A stretch of 64,000 nt of DNA, from contig JAFTVQ010000085.1 in NCBI GenBank assembly GCA_017461865.1, forward strand, positions 6,537-70,536, written 5' to 3'. A model generated the notes under the pieces. The model did no database searches. It worked only from the letters and a program-made list of their open reading frames with translations, and was not told where the DNA came from. The translations under genes were made by a program, and so were the position numbers. Within the stretch, counting starts at the first letter, position 1. Each line of letters starts with the position of its first letter. Shown piece after piece: positions 1,481 through 44,207 of the stretch. This stretch comes from Lachnospiraceae bacterium (GTDB lineage: Bacteria > Bacillota > Clostridia > Lachnospirales > Lachnospiraceae).

Positions 1481-4339
1481 CTATCTTGGTACTTCTACCA
1501 TAATATAAGCTTCTACAATATCAAGCTCCTGCATCTGGTCAAAGCCTTCAAATACAAGACCGCATTCGAATCCTGCTTTTACCTCTTTCACGTCATCTTT
1601 GAAACGTTTCAGTGATGCAAGCTCACCTTCGAAGATCTGATCGCCTTCTCTTGTGATACGTACTTTGCATCCTCTCTGGAACGTGCCGTCAAGTACATAA
1701 GAACCTGCAATGTTACCGATGGCTGACGCTTTGAAAATCTGTCTTACTTCCGCATGACCGATTACTTTTTCCTCGAAGATCGGATCGAGCATACCCTTCA
1801 TGGCAGCTTCCACATCCTCAATTGCCTGATAAATAACTTTATAAAGTCTGACATCCACGCCCTCGCGCTCTGCTGTCGCTTTCGCCATCGCATCCGGTCT
1901 GACATTGAAACCGATAATAATCGCCTGGGAAGCGCTCGCAAGAATCACGTCGGACTCATTGATAGCACCTACACCGCCATGGATGCATTTTACAACAACT
2001 TCCTCGTTGGAAAGTTTCAGAAGACTCTGTTTCACCGCTTCCACGCTACCCTGCACATCAGCCTTAATAATGAGGTTGAGTTCTTTCAGGTTACCTGCCT
2101 GTATCTGTGTAAACAGGTCATCCAAAGACATCTTACTCTTAGTCTCTTCCAGTTTCTTCACTTTATTCTGTGCCACGAAAGTTTCTGCAAACGTCTTCGC
2201 AGTCTTATCGTTTTCATGCGCAATCAGAATTTCGCCCGCATTCGGCACATCGGAAAGACCTAAAATCTCTACCGGTGTACACGGACCTGCTTCTTTCACA
2301 CGGCGTCCCTTGTCGTCCACCATGGCTCTTACTTTACCGTGAGCAGCTCCTGCCGATACAAAGTCACCGACATGGAGTGTTCCCTTCTGGACGAGAACTG
2401 TCGCAACCGGACCGCGTCCTTTGTCAAGCTCCGCTTCCACCACAAGACCTCTTGCGCGTCTGTTTGGATTTGCCTTAAGTTCCAAAATCTCTGCAGTCAG
2501 AAGGATTGTCTCAAGAAGTGTATCAATACCTTCCCCTGTCTTTGCGGAAACCGGAACAAACTCGGTAGTTCCGCCCCAATCTGCCGGAATGAGCTCATAT
2601 TCGGTAAGTTCCTGTTTTACACGGTCAATGTTGGCACTTGGTTTATCCATCTTGTTGACTGCAACCACAATTTCGATACCGGCTGCCTTCGCATGGTTAA
2701 TGGCTTCCACGGTCTGCGGCATAACACCGTCGTCGGCTGCAACTACAAGAATTGCAATATCCGTAGAGTTCGCACCACGCATACGCATGGCTGTAAACGC
2801 CTCATGACCCGGTGTATCCAGGAATGTAATCTTCTGATCGTTGATAGTAACCGTATACGCACCGATGTGCTGTGTAATACCACCTGCTTCACGGTCTGTC
2901 ACATTCGTTTCACGGATAGCATCCAAAAGGGATGTTTTACCGTGGTCAACGTGACCCATAACACAGATAACCGGCGGTCTTGCAACTAAATCTTCCGGAT
3001 TTTCATCCTCTTCCTTCAAAAGTTCTTCAATGACATCTACCTGAACTTCTTTCTCACAAATGATTTCATACTCAATTGCAATTTCTTCTGCTGTTTCAAA
3101 TTCCACTTCCTGGTTTACTGTCACAATCTTACCCTGCATAAACAGCTTCTTCACGATAGCAGACGGCTGAATTTTCATCTTATCTGCAAGATCTTTGATT
3201 GTAATCGTTTCAGGAATTGTAATTACTTTAATCTGCTCCTCCGGAGGTGTCTCCTTCTTCTCCGGCTTAATAAAGCGTCCCGCTTTATTTTTATTCTTCA
3301 TCATCATCTCGTTATCATCTTCGTAGATGTGATCTTTTTTACTTCTCTTATCTCTGTCCTGATTATTGCGTCGTTTCTCATCGTCACGATGCTTTTCCTG
3401 CTCTTTTATCGGGCTTTCCGGAATGAACGAAGCCTTACCGCCCTGATTTTTGCGCGGTCCATTCTGCGATCTGCCATCGCCGTACGAGCCGCGTTCGTTA
3501 CCGCCAAAAGATCTCGAATTACCGCCGCGACCCTGAGAATCACCATTACCCTGGCCACCACGGTTAAAACCGTTACCACTCTGTCTGTCAGAGTAGTTTC
3601 TGTTTTCTCTGTTATCATTTCCGCCACCCTTTCCGTACTGCGGCTTTCTGTCTCTGTCATTAAAACGTTTCTGTCCGTCACCTCTTCTGTCGGAACCAGA
3701 TGACTGCATAACTTCAGCCGGTCTCTCTGTCTGAACATTTGGACTTTCTGCAATTTCCGGTTTCGTTTTCGGCTTGCCCTGATTCATCGGCTGCGGCTTC
3801 GGTGTCGGTGTGATTGCCACCGGCTTAATTACCGGTTTCGGCAATGGTCTGTACGGCTGTGAAGCATTGTTGTTTCTCTGTCCTCCGCCGTATCCGTTTC
3901 TGTCACCGCCATTTCCCTGCGGACGATTGTTTCCGCCACCCTGCGGACGTTTCGGTCCCATACTGCTGTTCTGCGGATTGCTGACAAAAATAATGCTTTT
4001 TTTCTTTTTCGGTGCTTCCGCCTTCGGTGCCTCCGCTTTCGGTGCTTCTGCCTTCGGAGCCTCTGCCTTCGGTGCTTCTGCCTTCGGAGCCTCTGCCTTC
4101 GGTGCTTCTGCCTTCGGCACTTCCGCCTTCGGTGCTTCTGCCTTCGGCACTTCCGCCTTCGGTGCTTCCGCTTTTGCTTCTTTCTTTCCGAAGTTTGCTC
4201 TCACCGCCTGTGCAGCTTCCTCATCCACACCGGAATCACTTCGTTTCACTTCGATTCCCTTGGTTGCCAAAAATCCTTTCACATCATCGTTTGATATATT
4301 TAACTCTTCTGCAAGTTCACGTACTTTAATTTTCGCCAT
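1481..4339 (-). CDS. infB: translation initiation factor IF-2
   Basis: 952 aa. [14 protein letters not shown]-terminus. GTPase motifs [22 protein letters not shown] and NKMD. Conserved C-terminal domains. Low-complexity G/R/N-rich linker. Confidence 0.97.
4010..4174 (-). repeat. 15-bp in-frame tandem repeat (~10-11 copies) encoding ([10 protein letters not shown])n in the IF-2 N-terminal region
   Basis: Plus strand reads gcttctgccttcggt/gcctctgccttcggt repeated head to tail. The protein reads [59 protein letters not shown]. Confidence 0.9.
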
Positions 4340-6111: not shown

Positions 6112-6576
6112 TTAAAAATCAATATGCGGACGTACCAACGCCAGATCCGCTCTTGCAAATTGTTTCTCACCGTTTTCTGTCCAAATGGTGATACTTCCTT
6201 TATCATACGCTTTTAATATACCTTCAAAGTCCTTGGACTTATCGATCATCCTATAGGTTTTGATTTCGATCTCTTTTTCGAGATACCGCTCAAAATCTTT
6301 ATCTTTTTTCAGCGGACGCAGGAGTCCCGGACTGCTCACTTCCATAATGTAAGAATCCTCAATGAAATCTTCCCTGTCCAGCTGTTCGGAGAAAGCCCTG
6401 CTCACCAATTCACAGTCATCAATGGTAATCCCGCCCGGCTTATCAATGTACGCCCGAAGATACCAGTTACTTCCTTCCTTTACATACTCCACATCCACCA
6501 GTTCAAAACCATTGGCAGTCACAATGGGCTGCAAAAGTTCTTCCGAACGGTTTTCGTAGTTGTCACGTTTTGACAT
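6112..6576 (-). CDS. rimP: ribosome maturation factor RimP
   Basis: RimP-like sequence (LVDVEYVKEGSNWYLRAYIDKPGGITIDDCE..VSSPGLLRPL). Start set to ATG 6576 (MSKRDNYE...) behind an AGGTGA RBS. The 20-codon N-terminal extension in the ORF track is occupied by a terminator-like palindrome. Confidence 0.85.
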   Translation of the reverse strand: MSKRDNYENRSEELLQPIVTANGFELVDVEYVKEGSNWYLRAYIDKPGGITIDDCELVSRAFSEQLDREDFIEDSYIMEVSSPGLLRPLKKDKDFERYLEKEIEIKTYRMIDKSKDFEGILKAYDKGSITIWTENGEKQFARADLALVRPHIDF

Positions 6577-6612
6577 TCGTTCACCTGTCCTTCCTGCCTT
6601 ATCAGACAATGT

Positions 6613-6639
6613 AAAAGAGTGGACTTGCAAGTCCACTCT
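6613..6639 (-). terminator. Intrinsic-terminator-like hairpin in the rimP-nusA-infB leader (also downstream of the RND gene)
   Basis: Perfect 24-nt palindrome AGAGTGGACTTG/CAAGTCCACTCT (6616..6639), followed on the transcribed strand by TTTTACATTG. Lies between the predicted promoter and the rimP RBS. Confidence 0.55.
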
Positions 6640-6668
6640 CTTATCATTTCTTATTTATCACTTTAGTC

Positions 6669-6697
6669 AGTATAGCACTCTGCGCCTTGAAATGCAA
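6669..6697 (-). promoter_or_regulatory. Predicted sigma-A promoter of the rimP-nusA-infB operon
   Basis: Minus strand reads TTGCAT (6692..6697), 17 nt, TGc TATACT (-10 at 6669..6674), i.e. an extended -10. About 90 nt upstream of the rimP ATG. Confidence 0.55.
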
Positions 6698-6731
6698 GCA
6701 TTTCGGCACATTTTTTGCCATTTCTTCAAGT

Positions 6732-9700
6732 TTATACCGGACCGCCCAGGTCACTGTCGTCATCCTCATCACCGATATCAATCTCTTTAATCTCTCTCTT
6801 AAAGAAAACATCATACATAATCGGAATGATAAACAGCGTCATAAGCGTTGCATACGCAAGACCGCCGATAGTTACAATTACCATACCTCGGCTCATAACC
6901 GCAGAAGCATCTCTGGAAAGCGCCATTGTCATCATAGCAAGAATCGTTGTAAGCGCCGTCATAAGAATCGGTCTCATACGGGTCTTTCCGGTCTCTACCA
7001 GCGCTTCGTGTTTTTCCATACCGGCAAGGCGGAGCTGATTCGTATAATCCACGAACACGATACCGTTATTAACAACCACACCGGCCAACACCAAAAATCC
7101 CATCATTGCAATCATGGAAAGATCTTCTCCCGTGAACAACAGTCCCAGGAAACCGCCCGTAAATGCGAGCGGGATTGTAAAGAGCACAATGAACGGTGAC
7201 AGAAGACTTTGGAACTGCGCCACCATAATCAGATAGATGAAGATGACCGCAAGAAGAATCATGAGAAGCATATCCTCCATCATACTCATAACCTCTGTAC
7301 TTTCACCGGCAATCTCCACACGGATTCCGTCCGGCACCTGATATTTTGCCAATTTGTCCTCCACCTGTCTGGAGAGAAGCGTCGTATTGTAGCCATCCAT
7401 TGTTTCCGCCGAAACAGTCATATATCTTTCCTGATTGACACGGGAAATCTGTGCAATACTTTCACCTTCCGAAATCTCGGCAAACTCTTTGAGTTTATGG
7501 GTCTCCTCAACCTCTTTTCCCTCATCATCCGTCGTCTTCACGGTAAATTCATAATCCATCAGATTATCTTCGGTAATTTTTTTCGTTTCGTTCACTACCG
7601 TTACCTGATATTTACCGTCTTCGGTATTTAATGTGGTAACATCGGCTTCTGTTGTCAGCTTCCCTGATATCTCCATAAAAATCTGTGCCACAGTAAGTCC
7701 GTGACGCATCGCTTTATCTTTATCAATGGTGATTTCGAGCTGTCTGTCTGCTTCCTCCTGTCCGTTTGAAACATTTTCAAACCCTTTCACGTCCTCCAGA
7801 AGCGAAACCATATCGTTACTCACTTCAAGTATCTCATCCGTATCTTCACCATACACATTAATCTGGAGACCGCTGCTCATCAGTGCGGAAATATCCATAT
7901 TCGAAGTTGCAATGGTATATTCGGTATCCGCATATCCTTCCTGCATGATTTGCTCCAGCTTATCTGCCACAACTCCGTTGTCTTTTCCTGTCGCATCATC
8001 CAAAATCAGATAAAATGAAAAATCTTTATTTGTTCCGGAAGACATCATGACATCTCCGCTGCCGCCGCCTGACATAATACCTACGGTCACAATGCCGTCA
8101 ATATCCCTGATTTTTTCCATCAAATCATCCGCTGCCGCATAGCCGTCTTCCACTTCCCATTCTGCCGGAACACTCATGGTCATACTCATCTGATTGCCGC
8201 CCATGGACGGAAGTAAAACCATACCGGTATTAAGCACTCTGATAATACAGAATACCAAAAGCACAATGGCAACCGCCATCGGAACAACCTTTACTTTCAG
8301 GCAGAAACGAATCGCTTTCTCATAAAGTCCGATTACCTTATCAAACCATTTATGACTCTTTTCATTTGCATTTTTCAGCACAGTCGCACTCATACACGGC
8401 ACAAAGGTCAACGCCACAATCAGACTGGCAACCAAACTGTATCCGATGGTGAGAGCCATATCCGTAAACAACTGTCTCGTAAGACCGCTTGTAAACACAA
8501 TCGGAAGAAATACACAAATCGTTGTCAATGTGGACGCCGTAATGGCACCTCCGACCTGTTTCGCTCCCATAACTGCTGCCCGGGCTGCCGGTACTCCCTT
8601 ATTCCTGAGACGGTAAATATTTTCAATAACGACGATCGAGTTGTCTACCAGCATACCGACACCCAGGGCAAGACCGGACAGGGAAATCATATTCATCGTA
8701 ACATCCGAGAAGTACATAAGCACAATGGCAAAAAGCACACTGAGCGGAATACTGAATGCAACCACAAGCGTCGGCTTATAATCCTTCAGGAAAATCGCAA
8801 GTACAATAATCGCAAGAAGCGCACCCCAAATCAGGTTCGAGAGCACAGAATTGATAATTAATCCGATGTAATCGCCCTGATCCATAAGCGGTGTCAAATG
8901 GAGTCCGACATACTCTTCTTCCAGTTCCTCTATGGTTTCCTTCAACGTCTCGGATACAGCAGATGTACCAGCCGTACTCGATTTCATAATACTTAAAATA
9001 ACCGCATCATTGCCATTTAATTTTGCATAGCTGTCATCGGCATTGTCAATGACCGTAACCGCAGCCACATCACTGATTCGTACGTCTCCGATTTTATCAA
9101 TCTTGCAAAGGATCATATTTTCAATCTGCTGCACCGTATCAAATTCTTCCCCGATTTTCACAAGAACCTGGGTATCATCCCCATTATCAATATAGCCCGC
9201 CGGCATGGAAAAATTCTGTGCAGCAATGAGCTGCGATAATGTCTCGAGGGATAACAGAGCATCCATATTTGCACTTTCAAGCGCTGCTTCCCTGCTCTCA
9301 TCCAGCTGTTCCTGCGCCTGCTCCATCTGGGTCTTTCCTTCTTCGATGGAAGTCAGTCCGGACTCCATCTGCGCCGTGTACGCACCGAAAGAAGCTGCTG
9401 CCGTTATCTTTCCTGCTTCTACATCCACATAAGCTGCTTCAGCTTCTGCAATCGAAGCGTCAATCTGTTCATTGATCTTTTCTGTCGCCGCAATTTCAAT
9501 CTTTAAGTTGGCCAGTTCCGTCTCAATCTGCGGAATGCGAACCTCAACAATATCATAAAGCTTTTTGAGGTTCTTCTTTGTCATATTTTTTGCCGCTTCT
9601 TCCTGTCCCTGCTCCTTCAGCATGGCGCGGAATGCCTTTAATTTTTTCGGATTGTCAATGGCATCTTTCACATTTTTCGGAATATTGTCAAGCTGAGCCG

Positions 9701-10829
9701 CTACCTGCTCATCCGCCACCTTCTTTGCATTCTCGGCAGCTGCCGTATTAATGGAAGCTGCTGCCTCTGCGCCGAGCATGGCAAGATAGCTTTCCACATT
9801 GGTCGCATCCACCGTAACACCGGTCATTCCCGCTGCACTGAGAGCCTGCTGGACGGCTGCAATTCTTATCTGCATATAAGCCGCATCATAAATTGCTTTG
9901 TAAGTTTCCTCTGATTGTACCGCATCTCTTGCACCCGAAAAAGCATCATTCATCTGCTTATAAGTATCCGGTACCTTATTGTCTTTGTAAGCATCCAGTT
10001 CTGTCTGAAGTGCCATCTGATCGGTCTGAAGCCCGACCAAAATTGCTGCGTATGCTGCTTTCGTAGCCATCGCCTCATCCAGCATTTTACTGTACTCAGC
10101 CAGTTCTTGGGTTGCGCTGTCCTGCTCTTCTTTCAGCTTATTCTTTCCGCTTTTCAGTTCCGCTTCCGCATCTTTCAGTTCCTGTTTTGCATCATCCAGT
10201 TCAGCCTGTGCCTCATCCAGCTTGTCAGTCGCGATGCCGAGAACTTTTGCATTTAATTTATCTATTTTCTTTTCATCCAACCGGATTTCAACGGATTCCT
10301 CCACCATACCGGTCGCCGTCACACTGGCAACACCGTTCTGACGTTCCATATGCGGAATTACCGTCTCGTCCACAAAAGCGGTCAGATCATAGATATCTCC
10401 GCCGTCATAATCCACTGCCAAATACATCGTAGCCATCATATCCGGAGATATTTCCATCAGCGAAGGTGTCCCCACATTTTCAGGCAGTTCAATCTGATTC
10501 ACCTGCGTGGACAACTTAACCATCGCACTGTCCATATTGGTATCATCCGCAAACTCCAGTGTCACCAGACTGTAGTTTTCATAAGACACACTACTCACAT
10601 TTTCCACACCGTTAACCGTGCCGAGCGCAGACTCAAGCACTTGTGTCACATCGCTTTCCACCCGTTCCGGCGATGCTCCCGGATATGTCGTTATGACCAT
10701 AACATACGGAATGCTGATGGTCGGCAACAAGTCTGTTGTCAATTTCATAAAGCTGACGATTCCGAGCACAATCAGCATTACAACTGCTACCAGCACTGTG
10801 AATGGTCTTTTCACACTAAACTTTGACAT
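6732..10829 (-). CDS. RND (AcrB/AcrD/AcrF-family) efflux permease, 1365 aa, with a large coiled-coil insertion in loop 1
   Basis: Canonical RND N-terminus (FSVKRPFTVLVAVVMLIVLGIVSFMKLTTDLLPTISIPYVMVITTYPGASPERVESDVTQ). Two blocks of hydrophobic TM helices. Loop 1 is ~630 aa versus ~300 aa for loop 2. Residues ~193-525 are A/E/K/Q-rich and helical-looking. Confidence 0.85.
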   Translation of the reverse strand: MSKFSVKRPFTVLVAVVMLIVLGIVSFMKLTTDLLPTISIPYVMVITTYPGASPERVESDVTQVLESALGTVNGVENVSSVSYENYSLVTLEFADDTNMDSAMVKLSTQVNQIELPENVGTPSLMEISPDMMATMYLAVDYDGGDIYDLTAFVDETVIPHMERQNGVASVTATGMVEESVEIRLDEKKIDKLNAKVLGIATDKLDEAQAELDDAKQELKDAEAELKSGKNKLKEEQDSATQELAEYSKMLDEAMATKAAYAAILVGLQTDQMALQTELDAYKDNKVPDTYKQMNDAFSGARDAVQSEETYKAIYDAAYMQIRIAAVQQALSAAGMTGVTVDATNVESYLAMLGAEAAASINTAAAENAKKVADEQVAAQLDNIPKNVKDAIDNPKKLKAFRAMLKEQGQEEAAKNMTKKNLKKLYDIVEVRIPQIETELANLKIEIAATEKINEQIDASIAEAEAAYVDVEAGKITAAASFGAYTAQMESGLTSIEEGKTQMEQAQEQLDESREAALESANMDALLSLETLSQLIAAQNFSMPAGYIDNGDDTQVLVKIGEEFDTVQQIENMILCKIDKIGDVRISDVAAVTVIDNADDSYAKLNGNDAVILSIMKSSTAGTSAVSETLKETIEELEEEYVGLHLTPLMDQGDYIGLIINSVLSNLIWGALLAIIVLAIFLKDYKPTLVVAFSIPLSVLFAIVLMYFSDVTMNMISLSGLALGVGMLVDNSIVVIENIYRLRNKGVPAARAAVMGAKQVGGAITASTLTTICVFLPIVFTSGLTRQLFTDMALTIGYSLVASLIVALTFVPCMSATVLKNANEKSHKWFDKVIGLYEKAIRFCLKVKVVPMAVAIVLLVFCIIRVLNTGMVLLPSMGGNQMSMTMSVPAEWEVEDGYAAADDLMEKIRDIDGIVTVGIMSGGGSGDVMMSSGTNKDFSFYLILDDATGKDNGVVADKLEQIMQEGYADTEYTIATSNMDISALMSSGLQINVYGEDTDEILEVSNDMVSLLEDVKGFENVSNGQEEADRQLEITIDKDKAMRHGLTVAQIFMEISGKLTTEADVTTLNTEDGKYQVTVVNETKKITEDNLMDYEFTVKTTDDEGKEVEETHKLKEFAEISEGESIAQISRVNQERYMTVSAETMDGYNTTLLSRQVEDKLAKYQVPDGIRVEIAGESTEVMSMMEDMLLMILLAVIFIYLIMVAQFQSLLSPFIVLFTIPLAFTGGFLGLLFTGEDLSMIAMMGFLVLAGVVVNNGIVFVDYTNQLRLAGMEKHEALVETGKTRMRPILMTALTTILAMMTMALSRDASAVMSRGMVIVTIGGLAYATLMTLFIIPIMYDVFFKREIKEIDIGDEDDDSDLGGPV

Positions 10830-10955
10830 GATGATCTCTCCTGTTTATTTCTTGTTTATAGTTTTTTTATGTTATTTTTATATTTTGCCAAACATAACAA
10901 TACGAAATGAGATTACACCCCATTTCGCATTGAATAAAAATCTATTTTTTGTTTC

Positions 10956-11384
10956 TTAAATATCTCCTGCCGTTTTGAGGAACAGAGATTCCTCCTCATT
11001 GATCTTCTTTGCTTTCTGCACATATTCTTCCTGCACTTCGTTCATAAGCGGCGCAGCCTCAGCCTTTGCTTTTTCATCCAGCGCCTGTTTTACGGCTTCC
11101 TCATAGAACTCCAGCGCTGCAATATCTTCATATCCCATATAGAAATCCGCATACTCGGAATCACCCTGTCTTGTCTGTCCGCTGTAATCATAGCTTACAT
11201 CCATTCTTCTGCGCACTGCTACATAATTATCCTCAATCTTAATAAATGTAACATTTGTCGTCGTCGTCTTATTACCTTCAATCAAAAGATCTTTGCTGAG
11301 TTTCATACCGTTACTCAAGACAACACTCACTAACGTGGCATCAATATTATCAACAACTATCTGATTAAATACTTCTTTTTTCAT
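10956..11384 (-). CDS. hypothetical cytoplasmic protein (142 aa), no recognisable family
   Basis: ATG at 11384 (MKKEVFNQ...) sits 8 nt after a GGGAGG RBS. No TM segment or signal peptide. N-terminal half looks beta-rich and the C-terminal ~50 aa is acidic and helical. Confidence 0.6.
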   Translation of the reverse strand: MKKEVFNQIVVDNIDATLVSVVLSNGMKLSKDLLIEGNKTTTTNVTFIKIEDNYVAVRRRMDVSYDYSGQTRQGDSEYADFYMGYEDIAALEFYEEAVKQALDEKAKAEAAPLMNEVQEEYVQKAKKINEEESLFLKTAGDI

Positions 11385-11416
11385 ATAAAAACCTCCCAAA
11401 GCCCAATACTAGGTAC

Positions 11417-11445
11417 ATTCTACCACGATAAAAACAGCGCGTAAA
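11417..11445 (-). promoter_or_regulatory. Predicted sigma-A promoter for the 142-aa gene (and possibly the RND gene)
   Basis: Minus strand reads TTTACG (11440..11445), 17 nt, TGg TAGAAT (-10 at 11417..11422), an extended -10. Confidence 0.45.
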
Positions 11446-11468
11446 CTGTTTTTTGACAAAAGATAAAC

Positions 11469-11500
11469 AAAAAAAGCATTGAAAATTTGATATTTTCAAT
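11469..11500 (-). terminator. Putative intrinsic terminator downstream of tRNA-Glu
   Basis: Minus strand reads ATTGAAAAT-ATCAA-ATTTTCAAT (9-bp AT-rich stem), followed by GC TTTTTTT. Confidence 0.45.
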
Positions 11501-11534
11501 ACTTTCTCGGGTTGGACTGTTATAAAACAGTGAG

Positions 11535-11606
11535 CAGCTCGTAGGGGAATCGAACCCCTGTTTCCGCCGTGAGAGGGCGGCGTCTTAACCGCTTGACCAA
11601 CGAGCC
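11535..11606 (-). tRNA. tRNA-Glu (anticodon CUC), 72 nt, CCA not encoded
   Basis: Reverse complement is GGCTCGTTGGTCAAGCGGTTAAGACGCCGCCCTCTCACGGCGGAAACAGGGGTTCGATTCCCCTACGAGCTG. Cloverleaf has anticodon stem CCGCC/GGCGG, loop CT-CTC-AC and T-arm AGGGG-TTCGATT-CCCCT. Closely resembles Bacillus tRNA-Glu apart from CTC versus TTC. Confidence 0.9.
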
Positions 11607-11630
11607 ATGAGGACTTTTATGTCCTCGACT

Positions 11631-11659
11631 ATCTTATTATAAAATGCTGTGAAATGCAA
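11631..11659 (-). promoter_or_regulatory. Possible sigma-A promoter for tRNA-Glu
   Basis: Minus strand reads TTGCAT (11654..11659), 17 nt, TAAGAT (11631..11636). The -10 is weak. A better TATAAT lies only 12 nt from the -35, so it was not used. Confidence 0.3.
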
Positions 11660-11686
11660 GCACTTTTTTTAAAAAATAAATGCAAT

Positions 11687-14600
11687 TTACATCAAATCAA
11701 ACAAACTGTACTGATTTGACTCCGGAATATCTCCGAGAAGTCCCATTTCTCCCATCTTATCCAGCACACTCTGAGGTACCTTGCTGCGGCTCTTCAGATC
11801 GTCCTTGGAAAGGAACGGTCCGTCCTTTGCCGCCTCCATAATGGCCTCCGCCGCCTTATCACCCATTCCTTCAATACTGGAGAAGGACGGCATAATTTTT
11901 CCGTCAATAATCTGGAAATTGCGGGAATGCGCCCTGTATAAATCCAGCTTCATAAAATCAAAGCCGCGGGCATACATTTCCTGGACAATACGCATATCAC
12001 GAAGGGTATCCTTTTCCTTATTTGAAAGGGTATCTTTCCGTTTTTTATAATCCTCAATGTTCCGTTCCAAATGCTCTTTTCCCTGACACATCAGTTCGTA
12101 GGAAAATGCCGTGGCACGGATACTGAAAAAAGCGGTATAGTACGCAAGGGGATAATACACTTTGCAGTATGCAATTCTCCATGCCATCATAACGTAAGCG
12201 GCTGCGTGCGCTTTCGGGAACATGTACTTAATCTTACGGCAGGACCAGATATACCAGTCCGGAACATCCGCCTCCAGCATCACCTTTTCCCATTCATCCT
12301 TGACACCTTTTCCTTTACGGACACTCTCCATGATGGTAAATGCAAGGGAACTTTCCACTCCTTTGCTGATCAGGTAGACCATGATATCGTCACGGGTACA
12401 AACCGCCGTGGAAATCGTCGCCTTTCCTTCCTCAATCAGCGTCTTTGCATTTCCGAGCCATACGTCCGTACCATGGGACAGACCGGAAATACGGATCAGA
12501 TCGGAGAAAGATGTCGGACCGGCGTCGATAAGCATCTGCATGGCAAAATCCGTACCAAACTCAGGAATTCCCAAAGCTCCCAGTTTACAACCTCCCAAAT
12601 CCTCCGGCGTCACATGCAGCGCCTCCGTGGACTGAAACAGGCTCATAACCTGCTTGTCATCAAGCGGTATCTGCGTCGGATCAAGACCGGTCAAATCCTG
12701 AAGCATACGAATCATGGTCGGATCATCGTGTCCGAGAATATCAAGTTTTAAAAGGTTATGATCAATCTTATGATAATCAAAATGTGTGGTGATAATATCC
12801 GTTGTCATGTCGTTCGCCGGATGCTGCACCGGAGTAAAGGAATCGATTTCCTCTCCCAGCGGAAGAACAATAATACCTCCCGGATGCTGCCCGGTTGTAC
12901 GACGGACATTCTCACATCCTTTTGCGATACGCTCAATCTCACAACTCCGCTTGGAAATACCGCGTTCCTCATAATAATTTTTCACATAACCATACGCAGT
13001 CTTTTCCGCCAGCGTACCGATGGTACCGGCGCGGTAAGCCTGTCCGGCACCGAAAATAACCTCGGTGTATTTGTGCGCCTTACTCTGATACTCTCCGGAG
13101 AAGTTCAGGTCAATATCCGGCTCCTTATCTCCCTTGAACCCGAGGAATGTCTCAAACGGAATATCAAAGCCGTCCTTTACAAGCGGCTTTCCGCACTGCG
13201 GACAAATCCGGTCCGGCATGTCACATCCCGCCATTCCGGAATATGCTTTTACCTCCGGTGAATCAAAATCATAAAAATGACAATCCTTGCAATAATAGTG
13301 CGGACTCAGGGAATTTACCTCCGTAATTCCGGCCGCGTAAGCCACGAAAGAAGAACCTACGGAACCACGGGAACCGACAAGATAGCCATCCTCCACCGAC
13401 TTCCACACAAGCTTTTGCGCAATGATATACATCACGGCAAATCCGTTGGATATGATGGAATTCAGCTCCCGTTCCAACCGCTCCTGCACAATATCCGGCA
13501 AAGTCTCCCCGTATATCTCATGTGCCTTGCGGTAACAGATATCCGTCAATGTCTGGTCACTGTTCTCAATGACCGGCGGACATTTGTCCGGACGAACCGG
13601 GTCCACCACATCGACCATGTCTGCAATTCTGTTCGTATTGGTGATTACAACTTCTCTTGCTTTATCACTTCCGAGATATTCAAACTCTTCCAACATCTCA
13701 TCGGTGGTCCGCAGGTAGAGCGGAGCCTGGGAATCCGCATCCTTAAATCCCTTTCCCGCCATAATAATACGGCGGTATACCTCGTCCTCCGGATCAAGGA
13801 AATGCACATCACAGGTCGCGCAGACCGGTTTCCCGAACTGATCTCCCAACTCACAAATCTGCTTATTGATTGCCTTAATGTCGTCCATGGAATTGACACT
13901 TTCCACTTTTTCCGAATCAATCATGAATTCATTGTTTCCAAGAGGCTGTATCTCAAGATAATCGTAAAAACGCACAATTTTTGCAATCTCCGATTCCGAT
14001 TTGCCGTCCAGAATCGCGCGGTAAAGTTCTCCCGCCTCACAGGCACTGCCCAAAATCAAGCCTTCCCGATATTTCATAATCAGGCTCTTCGGCACTTTCG
14101 GCCTTCTGCTGAAATAATTCAGGTGAGACTCCGAGATCAGCTTATACAGATTCACACGTCCCACATCATTTTTGGCCAAAACAATGGCATGATAGGATGG
14201 CAGTTTCCGTATTGCTTCCGGACTGTCTTCTCCGAGCGCATTCACCTCATCAAGCCCTGTGATGCCCTGCTGTCTTAACATCTCAAGAAATTTTTCAAAA
14301 ATCTCTGCCGTCGCCCCTGCATCATCTACCGCTCTGTGGTGATTTTCCAAAGAAACGCCGAGTGCTTTTGCCACATGATCCAGTTTGTATTTTGCAAGAT
14401 TCGGCAGCAACACTCTTGCCAGCGCCACCGTATCAACATATGTATCATCCAAATCAATCCCTTGGCGCGCTGCCGCCACGCGGATAAATCCCATATCAAA
14501 ATCCGCATTGTGGGCCACTAAAACAGCCCCCTTACAGAATGCAAGAAACTCCGGCAAAACCGCTTCTATTTCCGGCGCATCTTTCACCATGGAATCATTG

Positions 14601-16267
14601 ATTCCGGTAAGCTGCTCAATCCGGAACGGAATCGGCTCTTTCGGGTTTACATAACTCGAAAACCGTTCCGTAATCTTCCCGTTTTGTATTTTTACTGCGC
14701 CGATTTCAATGATATTATTTTTCTCATTGGAAAAACCGGTGGTTTCGATGTCAAATACGACATAGTCCTGCTCCAAAGACTGATTTTTGGAATTGGTCAC
14801 GATATTTTTCAAATCGTCCACCAAATAAATTTCCGATCCGATAATTACCTTAAAGAAATCCTGCCTGTCCAGGGTCTTTCCTTCCTTCTCAGCCTCCGCT
14901 TTGGCCTCCTTATACAAGTCCTGCCATGTATGGAACATATCCGCAAGCGCTGCAACCACGCCGTGATCGGTAATAGCAATTGCCGGATGTCCCCATTTGT
15001 AGGCACGCTTTATAATATCCGTCACATCCGCAACACCGTCCATATCACTCATCTTGCTGTGACAGTGCAGCTCCACTCGCTTCTCCATGGCATGATCATT
15101 TCTTGCCACCCGGAAATCTTTGGATTTTTGAATGCTTTTAATCATAATCACAATATCCCGGTCAAACGCATCCTGGGTCGGGATACCCTTTACCATGACA
15201 AAGGCTCCTTTGCCCGCGCCTGCCTTAATATTGGCCAGTTCTTCATTCGGACAGAACATCTTACATTTTATTGTGTCCGTAAAATCTGTAATATTGAACG
15301 AATAAATTGTCTTTTCATTTCGGATTTCCCGCTCATCGGTCCCGAGAATCTGTCCCCGGATGACGATCTCTCCGATTTCTCCGACAACTGCATCAATCGG
15401 TGTAATCTCCCCTTCAATATCAAAGCCGTAGAGTACATCCGGATTGTCCGATTTGCGCTGTGGTCTGCGATACGGCTTATTGTCTCCTCTTCCCTGTTTG
15501 TCTTTGTCAAAGGATTTTCTCTCCTTGACCGCCGGCTGTTCCTGTTTCTCAACCGCCTGCGGCGTCTTCTCCGGTTTCCCGTCCTCTCCGCCGAACGGAT
15601 CAAAACCTACAGTTCCCATATCCACATACTCATCATCGCTGCCCTTCGGCTTTTCATCCGAAGCTGCTCTGGCTGCAATCTCCGCCACCTTTCTTGCAAT
15701 TCGGACATCGTCTTCCTTCCGGTATCTGCTCTCCTGCGGCTCCACGTATGCGATGTCAAAAATTGCCCGGATACCGCATCTTTCACAGACAATCTTCGTA
15801 AGAATATCAAGAATTTCTCTTTCCTTCTGATGATGGAGCGGAATATTTTCCACCGAAAGCAAAACCTGTCCCTTTTCCGGATATGAAAATTCACCTTTTT
15901 TCAACATGCTGTAGAGCACCGGACTGTAATTCTTCAGTTCCAACAACATACTGTCCATATACACGTCAAACAGCTTCTGCACATCATACTGGTCTGACAG
16001 GCGGAACGTCTCATATATTTTTACTTCCACCGCCGGGCGCAGCATCCCCATATCATCATCTGCAGCCGAAAAAAGCTGCCTTAGCAGCTCTTTTTCGATT
16101 TCATATATATACTGTTTTTCAATCAGTCTGTCACACGTTATGTAAACCTTGTAGAGGTCGCGCATACGGGTGGTCGCAATGCGTTCCACCGTAGCCATCT
16201 CCATATAAGCTTTACATACGCCGCTGAGTTTCAGCGTCGGAAAAACTTCAAAAAAACTTCGATTCAT
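11687..16267 (-). CDS. polC: DNA polymerase III alpha subunit, PolC type
   Basis: 1526 aa. MNRSFFEVFPTLKL N-terminus, PHP motif VELHCHSKMSDMDG, 3'-5' exonuclease motif VVFDIETTGFS, polymerase core. Low-complexity K/E/D/P linker at aa ~200-278. Confidence 0.97.
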   Translation of the reverse strand: MNRSFFEVFPTLKLSGVCKAYMEMATVERIATTRMRDLYKVYITCDRLIEKQYIYEIEKELLRQLFSAADDDMGMLRPAVEVKIYETFRLSDQYDVQKLFDVYMDSMLLELKNYSPVLYSMLKKGEFSYPEKGQVLLSVENIPLHHQKEREILDILTKIVCERCGIRAIFDIAYVEPQESRYRKEDDVRIARKVAEIAARAASDEKPKGSDDEYVDMGTVGFDPFGGEDGKPEKTPQAVEKQEQPAVKERKSFDKDKQGRGDNKPYRRPQRKSDNPDVLYGFDIEGEITPIDAVVGEIGEIVIRGQILGTDEREIRNEKTIYSFNITDFTDTIKCKMFCPNEELANIKAGAGKGAFVMVKGIPTQDAFDRDIVIMIKSIQKSKDFRVARNDHAMEKRVELHCHSKMSDMDGVADVTDIIKRAYKWGHPAIAITDHGVVAALADMFHTWQDLYKEAKAEAEKEGKTLDRQDFFKVIIGSEIYLVDDLKNIVTNSKNQSLEQDYVVFDIETTGFSNEKNNIIEIGAVKIQNGKITERFSSYVNPKEPIPFRIEQLTGINDSMVKDAPEIEAVLPEFLAFCKGAVLVAHNADFDMGFIRVAAARQGIDLDDTYVDTVALARVLLPNLAKYKLDHVAKALGVSLENHHRAVDDAGATAEIFEKFLEMLRQQGITGLDEVNALGEDSPEAIRKLPSYHAIVLAKNDVGRVNLYKLISESHLNYFSRRPKVPKSLIMKYREGLILGSACEAGELYRAILDGKSESEIAKIVRFYDYLEIQPLGNNEFMIDSEKVESVNSMDDIKAINKQICELGDQFGKPVCATCDVHFLDPEDEVYRRIIMAGKGFKDADSQAPLYLRTTDEMLEEFEYLGSDKAREVVITNTNRIADMVDVVDPVRPDKCPPVIENSDQTLTDICYRKAHEIYGETLPDIVQERLERELNSIISNGFAVMYIIAQKLVWKSVEDGYLVGSRGSVGSSFVAYAAGITEVNSLSPHYYCKDCHFYDFDSPEVKAYSGMAGCDMPDRICPQCGKPLVKDGFDIPFETFLGFKGDKEPDIDLNFSGEYQSKAHKYTEVIFGAGQAYRAGTIGTLAEKTAYGYVKNYYEERGISKRSCEIERIAKGCENVRRTTGQHPGGIIVLPLGEEIDSFTPVQHPANDMTTDIITTHFDYHKIDHNLLKLDILGHDDPTMIRMLQDLTGLDPTQIPLDDKQVMSLFQSTEALHVTPEDLGGCKLGALGIPEFGTDFAMQMLIDAGPTSFSDLIRISGLSHGTDVWLGNAKTLIEEGKATISTAVCTRDDIMVYLISKGVESSLAFTIMESVRKGKGVKDEWEKVMLEADVPDWYIWSCRKIKYMFPKAHAAAYVMMAWRIAYCKVYYPLAYYTAFFSIRATAFSYELMCQGKEHLERNIEDYKKRKDTLSNKEKDTLRDMRIVQEMYARGFDFMKLDLYRAHSRNFQIIDGKIMPSFSSIEGMGDKAAEAIMEAAKDGPFLSKDDLKSRSKVPQSVLDKMGEMGLLGDIPESNQYSLFDLM

Positions 16268-29792: not shown

Positions 29793-31385
29793 CTACAGTG
29801 AGTGAATCTTTACTTCTCCGTGTTCATCCACAAAACGACTGAACTTGATATCACTCTTCAACGTCAAAGAGTCCTCACCGATTACAATTTTTGTTCCTGC
29901 ATATGCCGTTTCACGCACGCATACACACGCATCCGAACGATGGGTCAGCATCTGATCCAGTTCTTCAAACTCTGCATTCCCGGCAGCCATCTGCTCCTGA
30001 AGCTGTTGGCTGAGCTGCATCAACGAGCGGACATACTGCATCTGCTCCGGAGGCAGTTTTGCCCCGGACTTAATCTTAGCTGCAGCACCTGTCAGCGTAG
30101 TCTGTATAGTCGCATACTTTTTGTTCATCTCCGCCATTTCTTTCTGCAATTCGACATAACGCATTTTCTGCTGCGGATCAACACCAACTTCCACCAAAGT
30201 ATCTGCTCCCATGGCAGAACCGAGTGTTTTACAAGATATCTTTTCCGCGGCGCGCACTGCACCGCCTGCAATAAATCCCTTTTTACCGTCCACGGTAATT
30301 TGTGTTCTGGCACTCACTTTACTGTGCATAATAGAGTTGGCTTCCACATGGGTTCCCGCTTCAATCGTAGCATTTTCCACAAACTTTGCCACTACACTTC
30401 CGCCGGCCTTCAGGACGCCCTTTCCCATTCCGTTCATGCCCCGGGCAATGATAATATCACCGCCGGCCGTAATGGACGCACCTTCCACGACGCCCCGGAC
30501 CTCCACACTGCCCGTAGCGTTAATGCTGAATCCAGCCTGCACATTACCCGATACAATCACATTTCCTTCTGAAGTAATATTACCGGTCGCCGTGCCGACA
30601 TTTTCCACTTCATACACATCGGACACAAACACTTTGTCTCCTGCAAGCATAACATGCCCGTTAATTTTAGATCGAATCTCCAACTTATCCTCAGACAACT
30701 CAATCTTGTCACCATATTTTAACGTAAGGTGCTTTACCTCTATCGGCTTTATACGCTCGCCGTATACGTTACAACCATAGTCGCCTCTGTCCTCCGGCGT
30801 CAATCTGGCAAGCACATCGCCTTCTTTACAATGATTGATTGTATTCAAATTAAAAAAGTCAACCGAACCGTCCTCCAGACGCGTCGGACGTGCATGGCGG
30901 TCTGTATTGAAGAAATATTCAATGCTCGCATCACTTCCGTTACGCGGTGCAAGTCCGGATGCAACAACAATATCCGTACAATATTCCCTCTTTTCAAGAA
31001 ACGCATCGATTGCTTTCTCATCAATTCCGTATTTCACATTCTTGTGTGCAAGATCTCCGAGAATATCCGACTTACTCATCAGACTTCCTGTCTCATTCGG
31101 CGGCACAAAGCGAATTACCGCTGTCATTTTATCCTCTGACACCTTCAAAAAAAACATTTCATTTTCCGGTAATCTGTGTGGTACCGGAAGCATAACAACA
31201 ACAGGCTCCGTTCTCATCGTCTGGATTGCCTGATATAGTTCTTTCACGTCATATTGCGTAATCCTTTTCAACTGCAGATACGCCGTTACCTCATTGATAT
31301 CCACCCTTTTCCCGCCTTCTGTTGCAGGAATGAACTCAATGCCGGTCCCCATCTGCGTTGTTACCATGCGAAAATAAGAGTTCAT
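29793..31385 (-). CDS. FapA-family (DUF342) protein
   Basis: 530 aa. The central beta-helix-like repeats (TATGNITSEGNVIVSGNVQAGFSINATGSVEVRGVVEGASITAGGDIIIARGMNGMGKGVLKAGGSVVAKFVENATIEAG) and C-terminal coiled coil are typical of DUF342/FapA. Confidence 0.75.
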   Translation of the reverse strand: MNSYFRMVTTQMGTGIEFIPATEGGKRVDINEVTAYLQLKRITQYDVKELYQAIQTMRTEPVVVMLPVPHRLPENEMFFLKVSEDKMTAVIRFVPPNETGSLMSKSDILGDLAHKNVKYGIDEKAIDAFLEKREYCTDIVVASGLAPRNGSDASIEYFFNTDRHARPTRLEDGSVDFFNLNTINHCKEGDVLARLTPEDRGDYGCNVYGERIKPIEVKHLTLKYGDKIELSEDKLEIRSKINGHVMLAGDKVFVSDVYEVENVGTATGNITSEGNVIVSGNVQAGFSINATGSVEVRGVVEGASITAGGDIIIARGMNGMGKGVLKAGGSVVAKFVENATIEAGTHVEANSIMHSKVSARTQITVDGKKGFIAGGAVRAAEKISCKTLGSAMGADTLVEVGVDPQQKMRYVELQKEMAEMNKKYATIQTTLTGAAAKIKSGAKLPPEQMQYVRSLMQLSQQLQEQMAAGNAEFEELDQMLTHRSDACVCVRETAYAGTKIVIGEDSLTLKSDIKFSRFVDEHGEVKIHSL

Positions 31386-31428
31386 AAAACCTCCTTTCCG
31401 TTACGGTATACCGTAATCCCCTTCCCTT

Positions 31429-32202
31429 TTACAATGAATCATGGAGAATTCCCATATAATTTCCGAGTCTGGTCTTCATCTTCGAAAGCCCCTTTGTATG
31501 AAGCTGCGAAACACGCGATTCAGACACTTCCAAAATATTACTGATTTCCTTCAAAGTTAATTCCTCGTAATAATACAGAAGAATTACCTTCTTCTCCTTT
31601 TCTGTCAACAATTCCAATGCTTCCATAAGCATTTCTTTCAATTCATGTTGTTCCATGATCTTTTCCGGCTGGGCAAAATGTCCGGACACCCGCCCACGCT
31701 CATTGGAAATATCACTTCCCTGTTCCAAGTACTCATTCAGAGAAACAACACCTGTTATTTTCATCTGGGACTGCCACTCAACATACTCCTCATCGGAAAT
31801 ACCGAGTCCCAACGCTATTTCTTCGTCGGTTGCAGGTCTTCCCGTTTCCTGCTCCACCTGACGCATAACAGCTTCTATCTGTTTCTGCTTCTGGCGTATT
31901 GTCCGCGGTATCCAGTCCATCTTACGAATCTGATCCAAAATGGAACCACGGATTCTGAGACTTGCATATGTCTCAAATTTCACTTCCTTCAAGGAGTCAT
32001 ATTTGTCAATCGCATCGATAAGTCCGAAAATACCATATCCTACAAGATCATCAAACTCGACATTGTTGCCGAGATACATTCCGAGCCGTCCTGCAACCAC
32101 TTTTACAAGAGGTGCGTATTCTAATATGATTTTTTCTCTGATATCCGGGCTTTTCGTGCGCGCGTAATCAATCCACAAACGCTTTCTTGCCGCTTCATCC
32201 AT
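31429..32202 (-). CDS. sigD: flagellar RNA polymerase sigma factor SigD/FliA (sigma-28)
   Basis: Region 2 (YAPLVKVVAGRL..DDLVGYGIFGLIDAIDKYD) and region 4 (LTLKEISNILEVSESRVSQLHTKGL). Start ATG 32202 (MDEAARK...) sits 7 nt after GGGAGG. Confidence 0.92.
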   Translation of the reverse strand: MDEAARKRLWIDYARTKSPDIREKIILEYAPLVKVVAGRLGMYLGNNVEFDDLVGYGIFGLIDAIDKYDSLKEVKFETYASLRIRGSILDQIRKMDWIPRTIRQKQKQIEAVMRQVEQETGRPATDEEIALGLGISDEEYVEWQSQMKITGVVSLNEYLEQGSDISNERGRVSGHFAQPEKIMEQHELKEMLMEALELLTEKEKKVILLYYYEELTLKEISNILEVSESRVSQLHTKGLSKMKTRLGNYMGILHDSL

Positions 32203-32239
32203 ACGATAACCTCCCACAAGCAGTTTTCTCCCCTACCGA

Positions 32240-32524
32240 CTACTTTTTCTCAATCACAGAACCATCCTGATTCTGCGACTCTTCCCCTTCTGCCTTCTCC
32301 TCATCACCGTCTTCTTCGCCTTCTTTTTCCTCTTCCTCGGTCTTCACCGGACAGAATTTGTCAAGCAATCTCTTTATCCAGGATCCAAAAATATAAAACA
32401 CAAAGAAAACGAGCAACACCACCTTTAATGTGGTATTGAGATCATAATCATTCCGATACATAACTATGCTGGTTACCAGCCCGGCAAGCAGCATCACGAT
32501 CGCTGGTATATTTTTTGTTTCCAT
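32240..32524 (-). CDS. small hypothetical membrane protein (94 aa, 2 TM, acidic tail)
   Basis: Two hydrophobic helices (IPAIVMLLAGLVTSIVMY and VVLLVFFVFYIFGSWI), then an E/D/K-rich C-terminus. Wedged between cheD and sigD. Confidence 0.5.
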   Translation of the reverse strand: METKNIPAIVMLLAGLVTSIVMYRNDYDLNTTLKVVLLVFFVFYIFGSWIKRLLDKFCPVKTEEEEKEGEEDGDEEKAEGEESQNQDGSVIEKK

Positions 32525-32563
32525 ACACTTCTCACTTTATGTAAACCTAATATTATCTATATC

Positions 32564-33049
32564 CTATATAGAATAAGGCTCCCTTCCGACTGCACGGATT
32601 TGAAACTCTCCGGTCTCAGGCGAAAAAACTACTGTTCTTCCGTAATTCGCACCTGTATCCTCCGCCAAAATCGGAATCCCCAACTCTTTCAGTTTCTGCT
32701 TTGTCGCTTCCACGTTGCGTTCACCGACACGGACAAGATTTGACTTGTTCTGGAAGGCAAACATCTGCGCTCCTCCTGCAATTTTGGCAACCAAACGATT
32801 TCTGGAAGCACCGGCCCCGACAACACAGCGAACCAGTTCCTCAATCCCTGTATCAGCAAACTTCGGAATATTAGAGCTATCTTTAATTTGTTTACTATCG
32901 GGAAGCATGATATGTGCCAGCCCACCTATCCCGGTCACGGGATCCCGCAGTGCGATACCGACACAGGATCCAAGTCCCAATGTCGTAATGGTATCCGGAC
33001 TGACACAGACTTTTAAATCTGCCATCCCCACTTTAATCATTTCACTCAT
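32564..33049 (-). CDS. cheD: chemoreceptor glutamine deamidase CheD
   Basis: 161 aa. TLGLGSCVGIAL and GGLAHIMLP motifs with the conserved Cys/His. Confidence 0.9.
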   Translation of the reverse strand: MSEMIKVGMADLKVCVSPDTITTLGLGSCVGIALRDPVTGIGGLAHIMLPDSKQIKDSSNIPKFADTGIEELVRCVVGAGASRNRLVAKIAGGAQMFAFQNKSNLVRVGERNVEATKQKLKELGIPILAEDTGANYGRTVVFSPETGEFQIRAVGREPYSI

Positions 33050-33072
33050 ATACTATTCGTTATCCCTTCGGG

Positions 33073-33690: not shown

Positions 33691-33715
33691 ACAGCACCGC
33701 TCCTTTAATCGGTTT

Positions 33716-34171: not shown

Positions 34172-34186
34172 GTCTGCCTCCCTCTC

Positions 34187-36268: not shown

Positions 36269-36269
36269 A

Positions 36270-38043: not shown

Positions 38044-38064
38044 GTGACCTCCATACAATAAATA

Positions 38065-38967: not shown

Positions 38968-38994
38968 CCTTACACCATCCTTTCGGTCCCCTGA

Positions 38995-44203: not shown

Positions 44204-44207
44204 ATTT

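Follow-up and report, generated by a model that had tools for sequence, protein, structure and literature searches.

The present analysis concerns a stretch of 64,000 nucleotides from a Lachnospiraceae bacterium (GenBank assembly GCA_017461865.1, contig JAFTVQ010000085.1, positions 6,537 to 70,536 of the forward strand), called the window below, and one gene within it that encodes a resistance-nodulation-division (RND) permease. An earlier note on this DNA, made from the letters alone, had described the product as an AcrB-type permease with a coiled-coil insertion in its first extracytoplasmic loop. The gene and the parts of its product, including the 334-residue insert that is the main subject here, are given by window position with the evidence in brackets. 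Residues are amino acids (aa) of the product, TM stands for transmembrane helix, and AF2 for AlphaFold2.

6732..10829, minus strand: RND (ACR_tran) permease open reading frame (ORF), 1365 aa (ORF list, Pfam, PDB phmmer, Foldseek)
10257..10829, minus strand: aa 1-191, with TM1, PN1, the first part of PN2 and the first DN strand (alignment to MdtB 14-205, AF2)
9255..10256, minus strand: aa 192-525, all-helical insert of 334 aa, interrupting helix alpha1 of the DN (funnel/docking) subdomain (gap in both the Pfam and the PDB alignment, mapping to AcrB)
8229..8879, minus strand: aa 651-867, TM2-TM7 bundle, with D729-N730 in TM4 at the place of AcrB D407-D408 (hydropathy, AF2, residue mapping)
7299..8228, minus strand: aa 868-1177, extracytoplasmic loop 2 (PC1, PC2, DC), of normal size and without insert (continuous MdtB/ACR_tran alignment, AF2)
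6798..7298, minus strand: aa 1178-1344, TM8-TM12 bundle, with N1254 (AcrB K940), R1284 (R971) and T1291 (T978) (hydropathy, residue mapping)

Identity and core architecture of the permease

Several comparisons bear out the assignment of the ORF to the RND permeases. First, it matches the Pfam family ACR_tran (PF00873) with 647 bits against a cut-off of 28; the match is split in two, and its second stretch joins protein residues 526-1342 to profile positions 198-1020. Second, a phmmer search of the PDB sequences returned MdtB (E 5e-80). Third, a Foldseek search with an AF2 model of aa 1-1170 returned MtrD, AcrB and AcrD at E 1e-43 and TMq 0.58, leaving the insert as the unaligned remainder. The MMPL family (PF03176) gave only 38.6 bits over aa 1080-1334, far beneath the ACR_tran score.

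The membrane topology is that of an RND permease, with 12 TM helices in a 1+6 and 5(+1) layout and two big extracytoplasmic loops. Hydropathy delimits three blocks (aa 3-37, 654-877 and 1178-1344), which, taken with the AF2 model, assign TM1 to about aa 9-37, TM2-7 to about aa 651-867 and TM8-12 to about aa 1178-1344. The two loops are as unequal as the earlier note had proposed, with about 615 aa in loop 1 and about 310 aa in loop 2. The region of the DN beta-hairpin loop, which makes the trimer contact in AcrB, is present, although shorter by about five residues as judged by eye.

The residues of the proton relay differ from those of the HAE-1 pumps. Mapping to AcrB puts D729, N730 and N1254 in the places of D407, D408 and K940 (aa 729-730, window 8640..8645; aa 1254-1255, window 7065..7070), and the equivalents of R971 and T978 are retained as R1284 and T1291. 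The AcrB reference used for this mapping has 1049 aa, and its landmarks F178, D407, D408, K940, R971 and T978 check out. Among 70 homologues, the D-N and N-N pairs show no or almost no variation, which suggests that the charges serving proton coupling are arranged differently in this Clostridia clade. The NCBIfam models, RND_permease_1/2 and all equivalogs alike, score the protein far under their own cut-offs (at best 542 bits against 1250, NF033617). Because of these sub-threshold scores and the altered TM4/TM10 relay, the protein is filed here as a distinct Clostridia clade of the ACR_tran family and not as HAE-1. Collectively, the comparisons show it, as far as homology can tell, to be an AcrB-fold, proton-driven-type RND permease of a Clostridia-specific clade.

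Boundaries and site of the insert

The insert is sharply delimited by the alignments. In the phmmer comparison, query residues 3-191 align with MdtB 14-205 and residues 526-1343 with MdtB 208-1023, so that 334 residues stand against about two in MdtB. The ACR_tran profile rejoins at protein residue 526 and profile position 198. The interval first proposed for the insertion, 9255..10253 (aa 193-525), is exact, the alignment gap itself being aa 192-525.

The earlier note had the stalk projecting from the porter domain, and on this point it has to be corrected. A global alignment of the core to Escherichia coli AcrB lets the insert fall between Q197 and L198, and the insertion site is on this evidence the first helix (alpha1) of the DN funnel/docking subdomain. 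The funnel domain makes up the distal 30 Å of the 70-Å headpiece (Chem Rev review). The helices of the PD-type module lie externally, and the funnel subdomains derive from that fold (PMC8277102). Since the insert lies in DN alpha1 and the funnel has the geometry described in the review, the stalk would start at the outer upper rim of the headpiece.

Ala makes up 19% of the insert, Glu 11% and Lys 9%; it is also rich in Gln and has four Pro and no Cys. When the insert and its head were compared on their own with Pfam, NCBIfam and the PDB sequences, no family was found, and only generic coiled coils (APG6_N, SMC, keratin) appeared below threshold. Neither Pfam nor NCBIfam gave a match to HlyD, biotin-lipoyl or beta-barrel domains in the insert, even at E = 1. 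A match to the FlbB 'collar' (E 7e-4, 19 bits against a cut-off of 110) was dismissed as coiled-coil noise. The TIGRFAM 'X-X-X-Leu-X-X-Gly heptad repeat' model (YhgE/Pip proteins), considered as a possible relative, was absent from the NCBIfam scans.

Predicted structure of stalk and head

Two AF2 monomer models were built, one of aa 1-1170 and one of the insert with its flanks (aa 176-540), from alignments of 70 and 73 sequences. The first has a mean pLDDT of 71.7 and shows an AcrB-like core bearing the same two stalk helices as the second, which has a mean pLDDT of 85.9 and a pTM of 0.60. The parts of the predicted stalk are as follows.

9981..10274, minus strand: aa 186-283, N arm of the stalk, a single continuous helix of 98 residues (AF2 insert model)
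9579..9980, minus strand: aa 284-417, head (tip) domain of about 130 aa with about seven short helices (AF2, indels)
9498..9557, minus strand: aa 425-444 (YDIVEVRIPQIETELANL), most conserved patch of the insert, at the junction of head and C arm (block conservation)
9372..9422, minus strand: aa 470-486 (VEAGKITAAASFGAYTA), mid-stalk 'neck' motif, rich in small residues, opposite N-arm aa 242-262 (conservation, AF2 breaks)
9273..9578, minus strand: aa 418-519, C arm of the stalk, a single continuous helix of 102 residues (AF2 insert model)

Reckoned at 1.5 Å per residue, each arm would be about 14-15 nm long. The insert is thus predicted to be an antiparallel two-helix coiled coil with about 100 residues per arm, capped by a helical head, and the long helical hairpin suggested beforehand is recovered in the model. 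What had been taken for a less regular middle turns out to be a confidently modelled helical head, with its short helices at aa 286-415 and pLDDT values of 93-98 over aa 265-445; the length of the head varies among relatives. A Foldseek search with the insert model returned only long antiparallel coiled-coil hairpins (a Thermotoga chemoreceptor, the MukB elbow, Rad50, SMC and the dynein stalk). These matches are all weak, with a best E of 9e-4 and TM scores of at most 0.42, and they single out no specific relative; neither membrane fusion proteins nor MmpL were among them. The helices of the model, the heptad periodicity described below and the hairpins found by Foldseek agree in placing the insert in the antiparallel two-helix coiled-coil class, with a pairing geometry that is predicted.

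About midway along the stalk, both arms contain conserved segments rich in small residues (ELAxYSKMLDEAMATKAAY and VEAGKITAAASFGAY), which coincide with breaks of the helices at aa 239-246 and 468-480 in the AF2 model of aa 1-1170. The two segments are taken to face each other because they lie at comparable distances from the bases of their arms, and they may form a neck or hinge. The residues E471, G473, K474, A477 and A486 are invariant in the neck motif.

Heptad pattern and conservation along the stalk

The A/E/K/Q-rich, heptad-like character noticed at first sight is matched by a statistical test. The profile of hydrophobic residues and Ala has a periodicity of 3.5-3.55 residues in both arms, reached by 3 of 2000 shuffled sequences for the N arm and by none of 2000 for the C arm; the middle of the insert is not periodic (103 of 2000 shuffles). 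In the 70 homologues, one heptad position of the proximal N arm (aa 200-234) is Ala, followed four residues on by an invariant (100%) Leu; in the proximal C arm (aa 488-515), each seventh residue is Met, Ile or Leu, with Gly, Ala or Ser at +3. The remaining five heptad positions of the proximal stalk are about 0% hydrophobic; outside the core, its positions are about 90% polar and reach an identity of only about 0.5. The pattern shows the proximal half as a thin 'Alacoil'-type rod, with one Leu/Met/Ile and one Ala/Gly/Ser per heptad and the rest polar.

The distal half is different in character. It is thickened in the model by the head of about 130 aa, and its stalk segments (aa 242-283 and 418-487) are 0.71-0.74 identical, which equals the porter and docking parts of loop 1. 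Block conservation reaches 0.79-0.85 over aa 425-444, where R431, P433, I435 and N441 are invariant. In the head itself, P384, D389, A390, K396, L397 and G408 are invariant; indels among relatives are confined to aa 305-372 of the head, so that inserts vary from 259 to 420 aa with arms of constant length.

Comparison with the mycobacterial MmpL transporters

The earlier note had likened the insert to a coiled coil in mycobacterial MmpL4/5-type proteins, located in the other loop, and the published work agrees. MmpL5 carries a coiled-coil insert of 196 aa and about 13 nm in PD2, the C-terminal loop, which is essential for efflux; models, and in part the structure of a homologue, show it as a hexameric barrel 13 nm long (PMC12501195). 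A periplasmic coiled-coil domain is found in the cluster-I proteins MmpL4, MmpL5 and MmpL10 (PMC12183618, PMC11850643). Like these, the Clostridia protein would have, in cis, an extended antiparallel coiled-coil hairpin reaching out from an extracytoplasmic domain, in a host without TolC-type machinery.

Compared to the MmpL proteins, the Clostridia permease differs in several respects. First, its loop 2 aligns continuously, and it is loop 1, the N-terminal one, that carries the insert, in its DN subdomain and not in PD2. Second, it is an AcrB-type protein with an insert of 334 aa and a large helical head. Third, the MmpL insert has a disulfide at its tip and a lumen lined with Met, and needs MmpS; the Clostridia insert contains no Cys, has a single seam flanked by polar residues, matches MmpL neither in sequence nor in fold and is accompanied by no MmpS-like gene. 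In 73 loci, no recurrent small membrane-anchored protein that could serve as an MmpS-like partner was found among the neighbours.

These features bear on the possibility that the insert works as an MmpL5-like conduit, in which the three hairpins of a trimer would form a six-helix alpha-barrel above the funnel, substrates would pass through the lumen and the heads would form the distal mouth. The essential MmpL5 barrel speaks for it. The arms, of about 100 residues, are similar in length to the MmpL5 coiled coil, the insert is rich in Ala with Met, Ile and Leu at core positions of the C arm, and a barrel built on polar contacts, as in the AcrA hairpins, would still be compatible with the sequence. 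However, the proximal stalk offers one narrow seam, no second interface by which neighbouring hairpins could pack and no apolar lumen, and the insert leaves DN alpha1 on the external face of the funnel, away from the threefold axis. Because of the single polar-flanked seam and the peripheral insertion site, and with neither disulfide, MmpS-like partner nor MmpL or membrane-fusion-protein match in Foldseek, the conduit, although the foremost alternative to the reading preferred below, is considered unlikely. The narrow seam and the polar, poorly conserved remaining surface argue instead for solvent-exposed rods without barrel packing, and not for a sealed tube of the MmpL5 kind.

Spread of the insert

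The insert is not a rarity of one genome. The identical 1365-aa protein is present on five contigs, the longest of 238 kb, and its relatives form more than 120 clusters at 90% identity, with lengths of about 1355-1365 aa and identities reaching down to 56%. Clusters with names are annotated 'efflux RND transporter permease subunit' and come from Lachnospiraceae, Clostridiaceae or metagenome-assembled genomes (MAGs) of Eubacteriales. With one genome per species and two conserved insert peptides as queries, including that of aa 425-444, at least 188 GTDB species encode a relative of the insert; the best 80 of the 188 are nearly all Lachnospiraceae (Kineothrix, Jutongia, Lachnoclostridium and Roseburia sp.), together with a few MAGs of Oscillospiraceae and Ruminococcaceae. 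Among isolates grown in culture, Kineothrix sp. MSJ-39, Jutongia huaianensis NSJ-37, J. hominis BX3 and strain D16-51 have the long ORF unbroken.

When the insert by itself served as query, a word-indexed homology search found 13 RND fragments only, as coiled-coil words swamped the candidates, and it was replaced by a profile search. A HMMER profile of the insert against 1.84 billion representatives returned only 263 clusters at E <= 1e-3 and 81 at E <= 1e-10; in about 33 of the best 150 matches, the match starts at aa 186-191 of the protein. In all 24 divergent RND relatives examined, the same site holds an insert of 193-394 aa, and identity in the flanks is 30-64%. The first 45 or so and the last 50 or so residues of the insert align in register in these relatives, the end of the insert keeps a conserved A-L-x-x-A-N/D-x-D-x-L junction, and the E-x-G-K motif of the neck can be recognised in many of them. 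One relative (P0208) has an insert of only 193 aa, after which the ACR_tran profile rejoins at position 198, and it is essentially a bare hairpin with almost no head. Because the bases align in register while the length of the head varies, the stalk base is, on these alignments, an ancient shared element and the head an elaboration. As far as the placement by GTDB matches goes, the stalk insert is a widespread and old trait of a large Clostridia RND clade.

The same profile repeatedly matches the long extracytoplasmic coiled coils of MacB/FtsX-type permeases of the ABC superfamily. Four such proteins (P0216, P0205, P0207 and P0217) are 1200-1380 aa long, with coiled coils of about 400 aa and 'L-x-x-A/G' heptads; P0216 combines MacB_PCD and FtsX domains with a coiled coil of about 400 aa. 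The heptad likeness may be purely compositional.

The spread of the insert also bears on whether it could be an artefact or non-functional decoration, either a chimera of the assembly or a disordered low-complexity linker that a surface loop can accommodate. The biased A/E/K/Q composition and the variable length of the head could be cited for such a view. The identical protein on five independent contigs and the collinear homologues in so many species, isolates among them, speak against it, as do the absence of a discontinuity in GC content across the insert, the confident prediction of a helical fold, and the invariant residues and strict heptad register kept at 30-40% flank identity. An artefact is effectively refuted. 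What the earlier note had named as grounds for abandoning its proposal was not encountered: the insert matches no Pfam, NCBIfam or PDB family, its model is ordered (pLDDT 86), and the contigs and isolates show no chimera.

Gene neighbourhood and search for partners

Upstream of the RND gene in the window lie polC and an orphan gene for a protein of 147 aa, and downstream follow rimP, nusA, ylxR, L7Ae and infB. Two features between polC and the RND gene are as follows.

10956..11399, minus strand: soluble orphan protein of 147 aa, or 142 aa from its ATG (no Pfam or NCBIfam family match)
10898..10932, minus strand: terminator-like hairpin between the orphan and the RND gene, 16-bp stem with T-rich tail (pattern scan; a consensus match only)

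The families that recur as neighbours in the 73 loci are listed below with their counts.

LD-carboxypeptidase S66, upstream of the RND gene: 31 of 73 loci
SpoVAD, downstream: 23 of 73 loci
SpoVAC/EB, downstream: 19 of 73 loci
DUF6465: 17 of 73 loci
147-aa orphan: 15 of 73 loci

The view that no adaptor or channel gene flanks the permease has held up. No membrane fusion protein and no outer-membrane factor was found among the window ORFs scanned, which left out those at 16.3-22.5 kb and several small ones; the other ORFs scanned encode tsf, further housekeeping genes and a flagellar/chemotaxis cluster. Neither the recurrent neighbours in the 73 loci nor the flanks of homologues, up to 8 kb, contain an adaptor or outer-channel gene. 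The adjacent adaptor and, in many cases, outer-membrane factor that mark HAE-1 loci are accordingly missing in all three sets.

The rimP gene and the 142-aa gene had been correctly named as neighbours; the latter is no mere orphan, however, as it is a clade-specific gene that travels with the pump in the subclade of the window gene. Its homologues stand directly upstream of a long RND gene in the 15 loci; in one of them the pair is inverted and lies among other genes. The family comprises 37 clusters, of which all with a source name are Lachnospiraceae 'hypothetical protein', and the product has no hydrophobic segment as judged by eye. The protein may be a companion of the pump particular to this clade, or its regulator. 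In the window, the orphan and RND genes lie between polC and rimP-nusA-ylxR-L7Ae-infB (window 6112..16267), and the orphan region has a GC content of 0.37-0.39, below the 0.43-0.49 of its surroundings. The genes polC and rimP are usually adjacent in Bacillota.

RND homologues occupy unrelated neighbourhoods elsewhere. In a Jutongia-like subclade (loci L027, L001-L004 and about 20 others), the LD-carboxypeptidase S66 gene or, in L001-L004, a NUDIX gene lies upstream, and spoVAD, spoVAC/EB, DUF6465 and a small acid-soluble spore protein gene lie downstream of the long RND gene. A link of this context to sporulation or wall remodelling is possible. The sporulation linkage was not built on, as the spoVA neighbourhood is confined to that one subclade and the window gene lies between polC and rimP.

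Some of these data concern another role for the stalk, that of a docking or mechanotransmission arm. Head and neck would then bind a wall-associated hydrolase, a lipoprotein or a substrate-delivery protein, which the RND cycle would move or regulate, much as coiled coils act on partners in FtsEX-type systems; the purpose of the stalk would not be export through its own region. The distribution of conservation fits this idea, as the distal stalk and the head junction are the most conserved parts and the proximal rod appears a mere spacer, and so does the small-residue neck, a possible hinge in the AF2 monomer model of aa 1-1170. The MacB/FtsX-type permeases with long coiled coils and the same heptad signature, the upstream LD-carboxypeptidase gene and the requirement of SwrC, an RND permease of Bacillus subtilis, for the extracytoplasmic lipoprotein MeeY could also be cited in its support. 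Against this, no candidate partner is conserved across the differing neighbourhoods of the family, some divergent relatives such as P0208 are nearly headless, and the FtsX-type likeness is perhaps one of composition. Moreover, LD-carboxypeptidases of family S66 are usually cytoplasmic. A docking arm in this sense is held to be improbable.

Three further observations concern the rest of the window. The infB product (1481..4339, minus strand) has a long N-terminal low-complexity region with many tandem 10-residue repeats and then, ahead of the GTPase domain, a stretch rich in Gly, Asn, Arg and Gln. The flagellar/chemotaxis cluster (29793..61218, minus strand) encodes FapA, CheA, CheB, FlhF, FlhA, FlhB, FliP, FliN/Y, FliM, FlgE, FliK, FliI, FliH, FliG and FliF, and the source organism is probably a motile member of the Lachnospiraceae. 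The interval at 22.5-25.8 kb holds genes for a bactofilin, a GGDEF protein and a polysaccharide deacetylase.

Comparison with other pumps and adaptors

The Clostridia permease shares with the HAE-1 pumps AcrB, MexB and MtrD the fold, the domain order PN1, PN2, DN, PC1, PC2, DC and the 12 TM helices. HAE-1 pumps have no DN insert, use the D407-D408-K940 relay and have a separate adaptor and TolC-type channel encoded nearby, whereas the Clostridia protein has the insert, a D-N-N relay and stands alone.

Compared to the adaptors AcrA, MacA and EmrA, the stalk is alike in being an antiparallel coiled coil that would lengthen the reach of a pump, and an analogous role is a proposal. The adaptors are separate polypeptides with lipoyl, beta-barrel and membrane-proximal domains, six copies of which form a sealed tube with TolC. 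The Clostridia hairpin, in contrast, is fused into the permease, is presumably present in three copies, has no such domains and does not look tube-forming on its surface.

AcrB-fold permeases in monoderm Bacillota are known from SwrC/YerP of B. subtilis, FemT of Staphylococcus aureus and CD630_24070 of Clostridioides difficile. They are of normal size, no stalk is mentioned for them and they are described as very similar to Gram-negative pumps; they are set apart here by their descriptions. The C. difficile pump is encoded in an operon with genes for a membrane fusion protein and a TolC-like protein. The MacB/FtsX-type permeases also have a coiled coil in cis and belong to a class that needs a separate adaptor in diderms; they differ in superfamily and energy source, and the likeness is limited to generic heptads. 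In the literature searched, outside which most subscription journals fell, no AcrB-type permease with a helical insert in a DN subdomain was described, Clostridia included, in line with the impression that Clostridia-type RND pumps of this kind had gone undescribed.

Proposed function of the stalk

Our preferred reading, to which we assign a probability of roughly 45%, is that the insert is a cis-encoded, adaptor-like, wall-reaching stalk that organises the exit route of the pump. If the pump is trimeric like AcrB, as assumed, three rods would rise from the outer rim of the funnel and, together with the headpiece of about 7 nm, would carry the conserved necks and heads to a height of about 20 nm over the membrane, within the wall or at it. 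There the module would dock the exit of the pump to the wall layer or to a partner associated with the wall, and would maintain an open path across the inner wall zone. In this way it would take the place of the periplasmic adaptor, a separate protein on which the AcrB-type pumps of diderms depend, acting as three exposed struts with a functional head and not as a sealed tube. MmpL5 offers a precedent for an RND pump to which a coiled coil in cis is essential, and SwrC with MeeY one for a Gram-positive AcrB-like pump that requires an accessory outside the cytoplasm.

Several observations weigh against this wall-reaching stalk. In the AF2 monomer model of aa 1-1170, both arms are interrupted at aa 234-256 and aa 462-486, where pLDDT falls under 50, and the stalk may bend at its neck instead of forming a straight 15-nm rod. 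Given the change of the relay from D-D-K to D-N-N, energy coupling itself is inferred by homology. Finally, the view taken here spans 64 kb and flanks of up to 8 kb, and a partner or adaptor gene may lie elsewhere.

A bolder form of the idea is that these proteins are 'all-in-one' RND machines, in which the three stalks and heads of the trimer form a wall-spanning cage or duct above the funnel, with adaptor and channel built in, and which evolved apart from the MmpL5 tube. This, too, is considered unlikely. If it were true, the MacB/FtsX-type permeases might reuse the heptad stalk, which would then be a general means by which some bacteria bring substrates across the wall zone.

Significance

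The AcrB-like RND pumps of monoderm bacteria are poorly understood, and both their likeness to the pumps of diderms and their need for accessory proteins are debated. The permeases described here constitute an architectural class that is large, conserved and, it appears, not yet described, and that is found in Lachnospiraceae abundant in the gut as well as in other Clostridia. Their predicted permease-borne stalk of about 15 nm, with its head, sits where adaptors and TolC engage the pumps of diderms, and it would be a second, independent case, beside the mycobacterial MmpL4/5 proteins, of an RND pump extended by its own coiled coil. Whether the stalk acts as a tube, a strut or a docking arm is a question open to test in cultured Kineothrix and Jutongia species. 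The answer may bear on the tolerance of gut anaerobes to bile acids, fatty acids and antimicrobials, which are candidate substrates only.

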